A DNA stretch of 64,000 nucleotides from an uncultured Verrucomicrobiae bacterium (GTDB taxonomy: Bacteria > Verrucomicrobiota > Verrucomicrobiia > Chthoniobacterales > UBA10450): positions 1 through 64,000 of the forward strand of contig CAWFGO010000002.1 in assembly GCA_963815455.1 (NCBI GenBank), written 5' to 3'. Position numbers: made by a program. Below are positions 18,001-21,000 of this stretch, piece after piece. Every line of letters starts with the position of its first letter. The stretch's first letter is position 1.

Positions 18001-21000
18001 CGTCACACCGCAGATGCCGAGCGCGAGGACGATGACGGCGAGGACGAAGAACGTTTTGTCCTTCACCAGCATGCGCAGACCGACGCGGAGATCCTGAAGG
18101 AAGGATTCGAACATATGGATGAGTTGAGTGGTTGAGAGTTGAGCAATCGCTAGCCAAAAAAATCCAAAATTTTCAGATTTCTTCCGGTGGTTGACCAAGC
18201 TGTTGCAAGGCCCGTACCAAAGCGATCTCTAGAGACATAACTGACTTATTTTCAACTATTTGCAAATCATCGCCGACGCTCCCCTTTGCCGGGATCGCTT
18301 CGCTTTTGGGACATTCCTGTCCCGATTCTGGGATGGCACCGCCGTCTTCCACCTTGCTCATGAGATGCAAAAAGTCAGCTATTCAGATTCAACCATTTTC
18401 TCTCTCATTGAAGACGCCGCCGATTGGACCTTTTGTCTATCGGAACCGATAGAAGAATTCGGTGCTTCAAAAAGCAGTTGCTTGCCCGCGCTATTACAGT
18501 GTCTGCTGTCCTCAGCGGAAAAACTGTCGTCTCGGCTGCGCTGAGGACAGCGCACGTTACAGCGGGCCGATGGCATTTATAACGAGATTGATCTTGCCAC
18601 CGCGGAATTGTCGCTTACAACTTCCATTCGGCTCGCGATGTTGATGCGGGCCCTTTGTCGCGGTTTATCGCAGCCGCGGCGATGTCGAGTGCGCCGGCGA
18701 TTTGCGTAAGCAGCGCCGGTGAATGCGATAACGAAAATACGGCGGGACGGTGCACTCCTGTTTCGCCGGCCAGGAGCTTGACTTAATCTGCAACCACAAA
18801 TTCGTGTAAACGGTCGGATTCGCGCCCGCGAAGTCCGGGTCATTGTCGCGTCCACCGGTGAACAGCTCGGCGTCATGAAATTGACTGATGCCTTGCGCAA
18901 AGCACAAAGTCTCGGGCTCGATCTGGTCGAGATTGCGGCCACGGCCAATCCTCCGGTCTGCAAGATTGTCGATTTCGGAAAGTTTCGTTACGACATCTCC
19001 AAGCAGGAGAAAGAGAAACGACCTTCGGGAACAAAACTGAAGGAGATCAAGTTTCGGGTAAACATCGATGCCCACGATTACCTGACGAAGATTCGCCACG
19101 GGGAAGAGTTCCTCGATCGCGGCAACAAGGTCAGGGTCCAACTTCAGTTTCGCGGCCGGGAAATGGCCCACCAGGAATTCGGGATGCAACTGATGGGCCG
19201 GGTCCGCGACGATCTGGCCGGCATGTCGCAGGTGGAAATGAACCCGAAACTTACCGGCCGCAATATCACCATGACCCTGTCGCCGCTGCCGGCCAACCGC
19301 CGCAAACGCCGCTTCGCTCCGCCGTCCAAGGAAGAGCAGGAGATCGAAGCGCGAAACAACGAATAGTCCTGAGCAAAAGTTGCTGCTTCGCCGATTGGGA
19401 TAGCTTTCAGGATGCTATCGACCCGTTCTTCACAGCGTAAGTTCGCGTGCCGGTGCGGCCATTGCTAAATCCCTAAGCCATCTCATAAATGGCGTCTTAC
19501 GTTGTAGCCACGGCCCTCTGTCGCCGTGTACCGAGGCCGGGGACGCCCCGACAGAGCTCGCCACGGCGGGTCCGTCCGGTGGCGGACGGGGCGGCTACAG
19601 CGGGAATATTTATGAGATCGCTATCGCTTCTAGGAGAAACGGGTATTTGTTGCTATTCTAGCGCCCGTTTGTGCCCAGGGTCCTAATCCTCACCATTCTA
19701 GCTCCTCAGCGTTGGCGGTTGCTTGCTCTCATTGCGGCAGTCGTCTCGCACTCCGCTTTCTCCCAATCCGAGCCTCCCGTCCATTATTATGATGCCGCAA
19801 TCGGCAAGACCGGGCTGCCGCTCAAGTCGGCCCTTCAGACTATAATAAGGAGTCACACTGTTCTTCCTTATACCTCTGGCGGCACCGACACCTGGACGGC
19901 GCTGAAAATCCTCGATCAAGACCCGGTCAATTCCAGCAACGTCCTGCTCATTTATTCCGGTTTCAGTGTCCCGAAGAGCGAACAATACAATGGCACCACC
20001 GGGACGTGGGACCGCGAACATCTCTGGCCCCAATCCTTCGGAATTGTCGCCCTAAACTCCAACAGCCGCGCGAAAAGCGACATCTTTAATCTCCGCCCCA
20101 TCGACATCGGCGTGAACAGCTCCCGCGGAAACAAATACTACGACGTCTCAACCCCACCGGTCTCGACTTATCCGGGCGCACCGGGTTGCACCTACGACAG
20201 CGACTCGTGGGAACCGCGCACAGCTGACAAGGGACTTGATTGCCCGCTCCATGTTTTACATGGCCGTGCGTTACGATGGCAGCGATTCCGATGTGCCCGA
20301 TCTCGAACTTTCCGATACCCCGAACGCCTCTCTATATCGCTTTGGCAAACTCAGTACCCTCCTGGCCTGGCACCGCCAGGTTTCTGTCGATGCGCTCGAG
20401 AAGCAGCGCAACCAGCGCATTTACTCCGACTACCAGCACAACCGAAACCCGTTTGTCGATCATCCTGATTATGCCGAGATGGTTTTTTACGGCGTGTCGC
20501 CAGGCCAGGCCTGGAGCGACACCAATTTCACGGATGCCGAGCTGCTCGACCCAAACATCGGCGGCGACTTGGCCGATCCCGATCGCGACGGGTTAACCAA
20601 TCTGCTCGAGTATGTCTTTAATCTTGATCCGTGGCTGCCGGATAACTTGGCCATCGTGACCACAACCGTGACCAGCTCGGGAGGCATCAACAATTTGTTT
20701 GTCACCTGCCCCCACAATCGTAACGCCACCGACGCCACGCTCAGCTACGAGATCTCGACCAACTTGCAGACGTGGACCGCGGCATCGGCTCAACTCATCA
20801 GCGCCACAGCCATCAGCTCGGAGGTCGAGCAAATCACAGTCCGCGTTTCCTCTTCTGCTCCGGCGTATTTTGTAAGGATTCGCGCGACAAGGAACGGCCC
20901 GTACTAGACAGCGATGGCATCGCCGACTTTGTCCCGTATTCGGAAGGCCTGATCCAATCGTGACGTCTTAAAGATTGTCCGGACGGTCTCCCTCATTCCT

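Follow-up and report, generated by a model that had tools for sequence, protein, structure and literature searches.

The window analysed here is a stretch of 64,000 nucleotides at the start of contig C2 of an uncultured Verrucomicrobiae bacterium of the order Chthoniobacterales. On its plus strand, to which all features below belong, it carries a stand-alone infC, the gene for IF3 (18788..19366), of 192 codons counted from a CTG at 18788..18790. The product, read from CTG, matches TIGR00168 (E = 3e-56) beginning at its fourth residue, and the stop codon lies at 19364-66. The ATG called as the start is at 18875, 29 codons past the CTG. An in-frame TGA (18779..18781) closes the frame three codons ahead of the CTG. 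A Shine-Dalgarno (SD) sequence, AGGAG (18772..18776), leaves 11 nt between GGAG and CTG; the 3' end of the 16S rRNA of the same genome reads GATCACCTCCTTTCT. A preliminary description of the locus had proposed a frame that begins at this CTG, is closed just upstream and stands behind a GGAG, in a stand-alone infC, and all of this was borne out: thrS lies on another contig (C1:737715-739721) and rplT 165 kb away (C2:184031). Downstream of infC, the loci inspected carry genes other than rpmI-rplT.

The family of the source genome within Chthoniobacterales, here called the host family, comprises common soil bacteria and includes Ca. Udaeobacter. An IF3 gene was detected in 59 of its 61 genomes. 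CTG is found in all 58 host-family loci that extend to this position and likewise in 62 of 62 further new loci, so comparison of 120 distinct loci shows it to be invariant across the family. The GGAG–CTG spacer measures 11–12 nt in 52 of the 58 loci, and codon −3 is a stop in 92/120. The codon after CTG is CAA without exception (120/120) and codon +3 is nearly invariant, so the start region is under a general nucleotide constraint, a point against the explanation favoured below. The internal leucines at codons 26, 31 and 35, also conserved, are each encoded by at least five different codons among the same 120 loci. The called ATG is not conserved, being kept in just 107/120, and no conserved AUG, GUG or UUG was found upstream of the conserved RVN. 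CTG is the sole canonical or near-cognate in-frame codon between −3 and +4 in 25 of 119 loci. In an E. coli survey, CUG initiates at 1–2% of the AUG level, comparable to AUU, AUC and AUA (10.1101/063800). Among the 120 database homologues, eight already have M at the CTG position, and some NCBI records annotate infC from CUG. On this comparative evidence, CUG is very probably the start codon of infC in the host family.

The leader described below could be real and the start nevertheless lie elsewhere, at the ancestral codon −1 (AAU) or at an AUU at codon +4. We consider this improbable. It draws on positional homology, since the homologous start in sister families is codon −1, their ATT, ATC or ATA mostly preceding the CTG position by one codon; the preliminary description had rightly noted such codons in other families, but had placed them at the CTG itself. 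It also draws on spacing: hairpin P4 (see below) lies 19 nt from CTG in the host family versus 15–16 nt from the start in the sister family, and GGAG-to-start distances are 11–12 nt versus mostly 7–9 nt. Both spacings agree better with codon −1 than with CTG, and this counts against a CUG start. ATT occurs at codon −1 in four loci and at +4 in 94/120. Yet codon −1 is AAT in 106/120 loci, and in 116/120 it is AAT, AAA, AAC, ACC, ACT or ACA, which belong to no class rated at 1–2% in the E. coli survey. Codon +4 is TTT, TAT or ACT in 25/120, and a plain Leu codon at position 0 should vary as codons 26, 31 and 35 do. The four ATT–CTG loci group together inside the family rather than at its base, and were rejected as an ancestral intermediate. 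With CTG in 120/120 loci and ATT at −1 in 4/120, the probable host-family start codon is not of the AUU/AUC/AUA class. The earlier caveat that the ATT at +4, although not invariant, might serve in some genomes is largely answered by the loci in which CTG is the only candidate.

Upstream of infC, comparison of 57 leaders used for model building with 60 held-out leaders shows a predicted leader of ≈160 nt with four hairpins and two pseudoknots, both pseudoknots covarying in the two sets. The four conserved hairpins of the preliminary description held up, as did its GAGUG/CACUC pseudoknot, but a second pseudoknot had been missed. P1 (18630..18652) has changes on both sides in 5/7 pairs in each set, with 90.5% and 95.2% of cells paired. 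P2 (18655..18682), whose loop bears one strand of pseudoknot 1, has them in 9/10 and 10/10 pairs. P3 (18693..18720) is variable: all six pairs changed on both sides, 60–76% of cells are paired, and the hairpin is missing from three of the 57 leaders (L007, L041 and L048). An A-rich linker (18732..18739), single-stranded in the alignments, leads to P4 (18740..18768), which is supported by fold and covariation; in thrS-linked relatives its beginning coincides with, or closely follows, the thrS stop codon. Over the whole leader, 30 of 43 pairs changed on both sides in the model-building set, where 85.7% of cells are paired versus 34–46% in slid alignments; the held-out set gave 30 of 44 pairs and 89.7%. 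Tests of independent pairs on the tree had too few supported pairs (1–5) for significance. Folded alone, the window sequence gave z = −1.59, which is not significant (14 of 200 shuffles were equally good), and the case for the structure is therefore a comparative one.

The 5' strand of pseudoknot 1 (TTATCGCA, 18665..18672, in the P2 loop) is an 8-bp complement of its 3' strand (TGCGATAA, 18724..18731), the pairing being supported by covariation. Across leaders pseudoknot 1 reads (N)UCGCA/UGCGA(N). Its core pair is U-A in 52 and C-G in 5 of the 57 leaders, and U-A in 36, C-G in 23 and U-G in 1 of the 60 held out. The next pair outward occurs as all four Watson–Crick types and is Watson–Crick in 33/57 leaders versus 17.4 in shuffled controls. 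The CGC/GCG core is invariant and so shows no covariation; it could be a mark for sequence-specific binding. Elsewhere the alignments keep the shape of the leader with little sequence identity. Pseudoknot 2, GAGUG/CACUC, joins GAGTGC (18687..18692) to GCACTC in the P4 loop (18752..18757). All five base pairs form in 56/57 leaders, the exception being a single A-C. Its first pair is G-C in 44, A-U in 10, G-U in 2 and A-C in 1 of the 57, and G-C in 34, A-U in 21, G-U in 1 and other in 4 of the held-out 60. On the tree, pair types changed at least 2 and 9 times in pseudoknot 1 and at least 6 and 1 times in pseudoknot 2. The P4-loop strand begins 32–35 nt ahead of the start codon, a distance constant across three families.

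A search of the window leader against Rfam 15 (4227 families) returned chance matches only (E = 5.2 and 5.7). At gathering score there was no match among eight loci, and no curated riboswitch aptamer model was among the matches, which agrees with the absence of an Rfam family reported earlier. No terminator-like site was found in 18200-19700. The element GGUGAAUGCG, which we take to resemble 16S helix 23, was considered as a mimic of that helix and rejected; inspection by eye showed the likeness in the window alone, and it is not conserved across leaders. No rRNA mimicry was identified in the leader by such inspection.

Much of this leader proved to be old coding sequence. By profile, alignment and translation, the stretch 18585..18731 derives from an ancestral thrS of type A, whose 3' end it preserves between the KIRLA and the E-I-A codons. 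This fossil includes the promoter region, P1–P3 and all but one of the four pseudoknot strands. A probable −35 hexamer, TTGCCA (18594..18599), coincides with the Leu-Ala codons of KIRLA, and a probable −10 hexamer, TACAAC (18616..18621), with the Tyr-Met codons of VPYM. A CTTG..−10 pattern is present in 55 of 57 host-family loci, and a tRNA-Arg gene of the source genome has TTGAGC-16-TACAAT. The −35 of infC was not called by a consensus promoter scanner. We infer promoter activity of the two hexamers and a putative transcription start at about 18628. RNA-library contigs of relatives, from libraries that may also contain DNA, join the coding sequence to no more than the 3' portion of the leader. 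The RNA runs (word share 0.04) leave the 5' leader uncovered as contigs and are therefore uninformative on the start site. Many members have a sigma-54-like GG-N10-GC motif further upstream, which was rejected as a promoter element because it forms the 3' terminus of the preceding gene (..AHFGAPPA).

A DNA profile of the host-family promoter and leader, built without P4, SD and coding sequence, matched sister-family thrS tails collinearly (E = 2.6e-5 and 5.5e-5). Each of its best nine matches is a thrS-linked or thrS-stump locus, and the source genome's own thrS is absent from its matches. The reverse profile, of thrS tails against host-family leaders, was weak (best 12.5 bits, any match in 16/57; best shuffle 9.7). 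A structure model trained on stand-alone leaders only (R2) detects the thrS-coding tails L193 and L201 with E-values of 1e-6 and 4e-6; matches of model R1 in family f7 (L060 and L061) owe part of their score to the SD and the P4 end. Within 1.5 kb of infC, thrS is present in 22 of 30 loci of the phylum. In other families of the order, 28 of 55 infC loci are preceded by a thrS tail, versus 0 of 58 in the host family. Three genomes have a decaying thrS stump, broken just ahead of KIGAKIRLA or KIRLA (L159, L160 and L182), together with a complete thrS elsewhere. The genomes checked encode a different ThrS type at another site, and 11 linked and 19 unlinked ThrS sequences split at 100/99 in a tree in which entry G068 is unrepresented and entry G115, a frameshifted fragment, has a long branch. 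These comparisons show that the linked thrS, as read from gene neighbourhoods and stumps, was lost repeatedly, and that the putative promoter and leader of the host family are a relic of its 3' end, retained after the loss.

In sister families an intact thrS occupies this place and pseudoknot 2 falls within its codons, its 5' strand coinciding with the Gly-Ala codons of D-E-G-A or lying within a few codons of them. The wobble base of the Gly codon covaries with the P4 loop, forming A-U in 13, G-U in 5, U-A in 4, G-C in 3 and A-G in 2 of 27 cases, a compensatory change at a synonymous site of thrS. The pairing was found in 21/27 with a wide window and in 25/27 with the distance limited to 76–91 nt; the count for the Ala codon is biased because the Ala position helped to choose the register. 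Among other thrS-linked families, pseudoknot 2 reached a nominal p < 0.05 in four of five f7/f8 loci, in L108 (f3), in two of four f10 loci and in none of 17 others. Pseudoknot 1 was not evident in thrS-linked family f7. The fold could be an inherited signal coupling thrS termination to infC initiation that is functionless in today's stand-alone copies. The position of P4 at the thrS stop codon in f7 and in linked f8 loci speaks for such a past role, because pseudoknot 2 ties P4 to thrS codons and ribosomes on thrS would melt the fold. Compensatory changes went on long after thrS was lost, which requires ongoing selection, and we regard a functionless relic as very improbable.

The explanation that we favour, with about an even chance of being right as a whole, combines the thrS-derived leader, feedback at the CUG and a static role of the fold. 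Transcription of infC would start from the promoter once internal to the thrS 3' end. In the ≈160-nt leader, P2 and pseudoknot 1 would make an H-type pseudoknot, whose long third loop would house P3 and the strand pairing with the P4 loop, giving a single compact, clamped domain. This domain would stop 15–19 nt ahead of the start codon, where the footprint of an initiating 30S subunit has its upstream boundary, leaving the start region unpaired. In E. coli, IF3 accepts AUG, GUG and UUG alone and infC is autoregulated via its start codon (PMC5499595; PMC4705826). IF3 synthesis here would begin at a near-cognate codon. IF3 discriminates against such codons and, when abundant, would curb its own synthesis as with the E. 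coli AUU; by this analogy, feedback at the CUG is likely. The static role is a guess about function to which we give slightly less than an even chance: the fold would hold a weak start open and dock or park the 30S subunit, and enough IF3 would then be made from a poor codon even where, as is often the case, there is no SD. The structure would have arisen within thrS codons and been retained whenever the linked thrS was lost and the other ThrS type took over. Three observations point to a static role. A sister family with AUH starts shares the fold, and most of its copies have no SD (19 of 27 stand-alone leaders with pseudoknot 2 lack GGAG/GAGG); the 32–35 nt between loop and start is constant; and an alternative anti-SD hairpin is a median 5.4 kcal/mol worse than P4. 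Carried further, the double pseudoknot might be an IRES-like bacterial ribosome-recruiting domain born in coding sequence, which places 30S on a near-cognate codon without SD and in an IF3-sensitive way, and which has persisted after loss of its host gene on three to four occasions or more. We offer this stronger version as speculation that is more likely wrong than right by a wide measure. Overall, the earlier reading of a pseudoknotted leader with a CUG start is supported, but it lacked pseudoknot 1, the thrS origin, the fold in the sister family with AUH starts and the homologues annotated with M.

The anti-SD hairpin is central to a reading of the leader as a switch, a metabolite riboswitch or a thermometer, in which pseudoknot 2 opens and the loop CUCC pairs with the SD GGAG, shutting translation. 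In 50 of 57 leaders the loop could pair with the SD in this way, nine of them at an energy no more than 2 kcal/mol from that of P4, and E. coli IF3 is cold-induced (PMC6511841). The 5.4 kcal/mol is, however, a median penalty relative to P4; the sister leaders without SD have nothing to hide; changes of the loop to GCACC or GCCCC follow the thrS codons and not the SD; and conserved unpaired bases are few and an Rfam family is lacking. We think a switch improbable. An obligatory anti-SD function of the P4 loop as its general role was rejected on the energy penalty, the SD-less leaders and the constant loop-to-start distance.

Alternatively, the domain may be a binding site at which IF3, S1, bL20 or ThrRS represses infC or entraps 30S in a second feedback loop. 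A shape conserved with little identity past CGC/GCG is reminiscent of ribosomal-protein leaders, and L20 binds to Firmicute infC leaders (PMC1865079) and to pseudoknots in E. coli (PMC10931766). Here, rpmI-rplT does not adjoin infC, nor does it in the loci inspected, and the leader has neither a terminator nor, by eye, rRNA mimicry. The basic C-terminal tail of IF3, RKRRF, also occurs in families lacking the motif, and co-evolution of this tail with the leader was rejected for that reason. A protein site is unlikely, though it deserves more weight than a switch. The fold may instead shield a short infC transcript from decay or set a processing site, with no direct part in initiation; it spans the entire 5' end from the putative transcription start. 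Double pseudoknots stop exonucleases in other systems. RNase J (TIGR00649) did not exceed the cut-off in five of five genomes searched, which weakens an exonuclease barrier, and a fixed distance to the start codon is not expected of a pure stability element. We give protection from decay little credence.

The closest parallel to the favoured explanation is E. coli infC itself, where IF3 also has a near-cognate start (PMC5499595) and promoters P0 and P0' lie inside thrS, so that the leader comes from the thrS 3' end (PMC6511841). The start there is AUU, whereas here it is probably CUG, one codon further downstream. Here thrS itself is gone, and the tail left behind folds into two pseudoknots that are not described for E. 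coli in the portions available. The B. subtilis L20 leader is likewise a structured leader of ~200 nt before infC with long-range pairing and covariance; it is a transcription attenuator with a terminator and controls rpmI-rplT in infC-rpmI-rplT (PMC1865079). The present leader differs in its fold and lacks a terminator, rpmI-rplT and an Rfam match. The E. coli bL20 operator between infC and rpmI shares a long-range pseudoknot with one strand in the upstream coding sequence and the other by the start site (PMC10931766); here the pairing runs from thrS to infC, comprises two pseudoknots and survives without the upstream gene. Conserved bacterial CTG starts are on record for rpsL of Deinococcus-Thermus and RepA of RepFIB, which are not IF3 and for which the available text describes no comparable leader (PMC2830850). 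On CUG-started infC or this leader no paper was found, as before, in a search that reached neither the supplements of PMC11109978 and PMC5737381 nor most subscription papers; the main texts of PMC7247131 and PMC11109978 have no passage on IF3 or Verrucomicrobia.

Compact pseudoknots at a fixed distance before a start site are known from the rpsO leader, the activating pseudoknots of repBA/repZ and the intergenic IRES of dicistroviruses. None of them matches the leader in sequence. The dicistrovirus IRES binds the ribosome directly, independently of factors, and its tRNA-mimicking pseudoknot abuts the first codon, whereas pseudoknot 2 ends ~30 nt before the start.

If the favoured explanation is true, the rule for the IF3 feedback codon, described as AUU/AUC and in some cases AUA, would extend to CUG in a whole family that includes Ca. 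Udaeobacter. A double-pseudoknot cis-RNA on a central translation gene would be new to Rfam, and its natural compensatory variants would make each pairing testable in an E. coli reporter. Gene callers would be shortening IF3 by 29 residues here, or extending it wrongly upstream. The loci would also form a series for the birth of a leader from coding DNA, from a fold in intact thrS with synonymous covariation through decaying stumps to a pure leader.

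The infC start region of the window reads ...GCCAGGAGCTTGACTTAATCTGCAACCACAAATTCGTGTAAAC..., with a Shine–Dalgarno (SD) motif AGGAG at 18772–76, an in-frame TGA at 18779–81, the inferred CTG start at 18788 and the called ATG at 18875, 29 codons downstream of the CTG. IF3 was present in 59 of 61 genomes of the organism's own family, f1. One of the 59 loci ends before the CTG, which left 58 for start codon analysis; 80 further loci (18 duplicates of the first 58, 62 new) gave a combined set of 120. Two loci of the 58 (L008 of G007 and L055 of G002) come from genomes marked unpublished. 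Both contribute to the start codon, leader, spacing and anti-SD counts, to the infC tree and to the RNA model R1, but none of the claims depends solely on them. The invariant CTG proposed in the preliminary description was found in 58/58 of the first and 62/62 of the new loci (120/120). The frame was also closed just upstream in the window, as proposed, by the TGA, and a stop stood at codon − 3 (CTG being codon 0) in 92/120 loci, and the ATT four codons downstream indeed varied, codon + 4 being ATT in 94/120. Codon − 1 was AAT in 106 loci, AAA in 5, ATT in 4 and another codon in 5. The called ATG was kept in 107/120, conserved internal Leu codons of infC used at least five synonyms among the same loci, and CTG was the sole canonical or near-cognate in-frame codon between − 3 and + 4 in 25/119. 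The IF3 model TIGR00168 matched the CTG-started frame, beginning at residue 4. Three observations count against CUG: CAA at codon + 1 is as invariant as CTG in the 120 loci, a sign of general nucleotide constraint, the sister families mostly start one codon earlier, and the SD spacer of 11–12 nt in f1 is ≈ 3 nt longer than in sister families. We nevertheless consider it highly probable, from sequence conservation, that infC of f1 starts at CUG. Among 120 database homologues, eight NCBI entries have MQ(P/Q/S)Q as their first residues, starting at the CTG codon; thus, CUG is present in some automatic annotation. Our literature search found no publication on a CUG-started infC.

ATT and ATA had been noted at the same place in other families. 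Such starts, including ATC, do occur in the sister families, but mostly one codon before the CTG position: ATT in 25/25 f7 loci (29 fetched, 4 too short) and ATT, ATC or ATA near the position in 28/30 f8 loci. CUG initiation was reportedly raised in IF3 mutants in work by Sussman in 1996. In Escherichia coli, CUG initiates at 1–2% of AUG, like AUU, AUC and AUA (10.1101/063800). PMC5499595 states that IF3 rejects every codon except AUG, GUG and UUG and that AUU or AUC starts infC in all bacteria; an ATA start has been reported for Deinococcus-Thermus (PMC2830850). Several class members (L226, L228, L230, L231, L236, L237 and L241) have infC without a thrS (threonyl-tRNA synthetase) link and with an in-frame ATG, and the non-canonical start seems to have been lost in some lineages. 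A conserved TGA(T/C) (18779–18782), two bases past the GGAG, could add to the base pairs formed with GATCA at the 3′ end of 16S rRNA; the spacer would then be effectively shorter, and conservation of the stop codon would have an explanation. Many f1 members also carry an out-of-frame TTG-ANT-TAA mini-frame between SD and CTG (18778–18786 in the window), probably too near the SD for use.

The leader had no match in Rfam, and its single-sequence fold in the window, four hairpins, was no better than that of shuffles (z − 1.59). The structure alignment comprised 57 leaders (the 58 f1 loci minus one with 17 nt upstream). Here the four hairpins described previously were borne out: P1, P2, P3 and P4 each showed both-side changes, in 30/43 pairs. 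The single pseudoknot claimed, GAGUG/CACUC into the P4 loop (pseudoknot 2), is real, but a second had been overlooked: the P2 loop TTATCGCA pairs with TGCGATAA, located after P3 (pseudoknot 1). In pseudoknot 1, the core pair was U-A 52/C-G 5 and the next pair A-U 19, U-A 7, C-G 4, G-C 3 (33 Watson–Crick versus 17.4 shuffled); the first pair of pseudoknot 2 was G-C 44/A-U 10/G-U 2/A-C 1. Model R1, built without pseudoknots, recovered 60/60 held-out leaders (the 62 new loci less two of insufficient length), with U-A 36/C-G 23/U-G 1 in pseudoknot 1 and G-C 34/A-U 21/G-U 1 in pseudoknot 2, where four rows were off register by one. Kinship among leaders inflates these counts; on the tree, pair types changed at least 2 and 9 times in pseudoknot 1 and at least 6 and 1 times in pseudoknot 2, with too few supported independent pairs for a sign test. 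As judged from covariation, the leader forms an H-type pseudoknot, with an optional P3 and the strand that pairs with the P4 loop both lying in its third loop.

The thrS 3′ end lay upstream of infC in 28/55 loci of other families of the order (a count that leaves out one locus missed in the fetch) versus 0/58 in f1, and thrS was within 1.5 kb of infC in 22/30 phylum loci. A conserved block before the f1 leader, AGATT..CTTGCC....TACAAC, aligns with thrS codons for KIRLA....PYM, and later leader blocks align with those for LGA, SR, GDEGA and EIA. A DNA profile of the putative f1 promoter and leader, made without P4, SD or coding sequence, matched thrS tails with E-values of 2.6 × 10− 5 and 5.5 × 10− 5; the nine best matches were all to loci with a linked thrS or a thrS stump, and the profile did not match the source genome's own thrS. 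The reverse profile, thrS tails against f1 leaders, was weak. Comparative evidence places the origin of the f1 infC leader in the 3′ end of a thrS gene that has since disappeared.

The source genome's thrS lies on another contig and is of another type. It is in pieces across frames (C1:737715–739721; L116, L117), likely by assembly indel errors, because relatives have it whole. Chthoniobacterales hold two very different ThrS types (L119–L148), one always beside infC and the other never among 30 tree sequences, where 11 infC-linked and 19 unlinked sequences split at 100/99; f7 and f8 hold both states. At L189 (G160:C10), the second type is directly upstream of infC with the leader in between, an arrangement that looks like a reconstitution of the operon from the other thrS. 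The thrS tail was intact to the stop in 22/25 f7 loci. The other three (L159, L160 and L182) are stumps that start just before the putative promoter codons and carry a stop or frameshift, with a full thrS elsewhere in the genome. In E. coli, infC promoters lie within thrS (PMC6511841), and such an internal promoter would account for the end point of the deletion. On the infC tree, f1, f7 and f8 form a single group (99/99) into which a long outgroup row also falls; given the linked thrS in f7 and two f8 genomes, this points to several thrS losses.

The structure itself is, on comparative evidence, older than the loss of thrS. A set of 27 loci, from f7 and from f8 genomes with a linked thrS, has a hairpin at the thrS stop whose loop pairs with E-G-A codons located ≈ 28 codons earlier. 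At the Gly codon, the third base, a synonymous site, tracks the loop (A-U 13, G-U 5, U-A 4, G-C 3, A-G 2; 20 Watson–Crick versus 11.5 shuffled) when distance is limited; a wider window left 21/27 paired. Of the 28 f8 loci that stand alone, 26 could be anchored for pseudoknot 2 (of the GGAGC/GCUCC type) and 21 for pseudoknot 1, a few mis-anchored rows being scored as misses, and three positions covaried (Watson–Crick 14, 17 and 13 versus 7.9, 12.1 and 5.7). Model R2, for which training was restricted to stand-alone leaders of f1 and f8, found the coding thrS tails L193 and L201 (E 1 × 10− 6 and 4 × 10− 6). Genome-wide, R2 matched 19/101 genomes of the order (8/8 in f1 plus the source genome, 9/9 in f8, 0/9 in f7 and one weak f6 match away from infC), several f1 and f8 matches being training sequences, and 3/141 in the phylum, two of them from f1 and the third a weak outsider. 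The motif is single-copy per genome, at infC. It may extend beyond these three families: f3 locus L108 has a pseudoknot-2-like GAACGC/GCGUUC from thrS codons to an intergenic hairpin upstream of infC, and f6 locus L101 a weak R2 match (267–427, E 0.002).

The named relatives are Chthoniobacterales, including Ca. Udaeobacter. Two similar tandem permease genes (13477–15543 and 15622–18198, minus strand), both apparently frameshifted, point away from infC; the nearer is of the ADOP family. Most relatives instead have, upstream of infC and on its strand, a gene of ≈ 220 aa, presumably thioredoxin/DsbA-like. Downstream of infC is a frameshifted gene with a WDREHLWPQS motif (19671–20907), which we take to resemble extracellular endonuclease I; its first piece had no NCBIfam match. 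In thrS-linked genomes (L141–L149), a DIDGT-motif gene, presumably a HAD-type hydrolase, follows infC, often overlapping it, and rpmI-rplT is not there. In its C-terminal region (19290–19366), IF3 has the basic motif RKRRF together with a tail of acidic residues, both common across the order. A selenocysteine tRNA was called at C2:640661–640758.

How would the leader work? The fold occurs with CUG, AUU, AUC or AUA starts and is independent of the SD, which is missing in 19/27 f8 copies. The loop motif lies 32–35 nt from the start, and P4 ends 15–16 nt before it in f8 and 19 nt before the CTG in f1, a distance that corresponds to the upstream edge of the 30S footprint. When the leader is folded, the start region remains free. 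A switch is improbable: an anti-SD hairpin can form in 50/57 leaders, but at a median cost of 5.4 kcal/mol relative to P4, and we found no terminator near infC. Binding of a regulatory protein is somewhat less unlikely, but rpmI-rplT is not near infC in the source genome or the loci inspected. Least likely of the three is a stability element, RNase J exceeding its cut-off in 0/5 genomes searched. Independence of codon and SD, the steady distance and these negative results favour, tentatively and at close to even chances, a folded leader that statically assists translation from a start that is weak and policed by IF3. In two studies, RNA-library contigs of relatives run from the 3′ part of the leader into the infC coding sequence, a slight point in favour.

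The leader is not of the L20 type (PMC1865079). It would resemble E. coli infC autocontrol in its mode of working and in a thrS-internal promoter, here putative, and differs in its probable CUG start. A literature search found no description of the motif, the supplements of two motif surveys being outside its reach. We judge the feature, from comparative sequence analysis, to be real. It would amount to a variant form of autoregulation by IF3, and it combines an RNA motif for which no description was found with an origin that can be traced in coding DNA.
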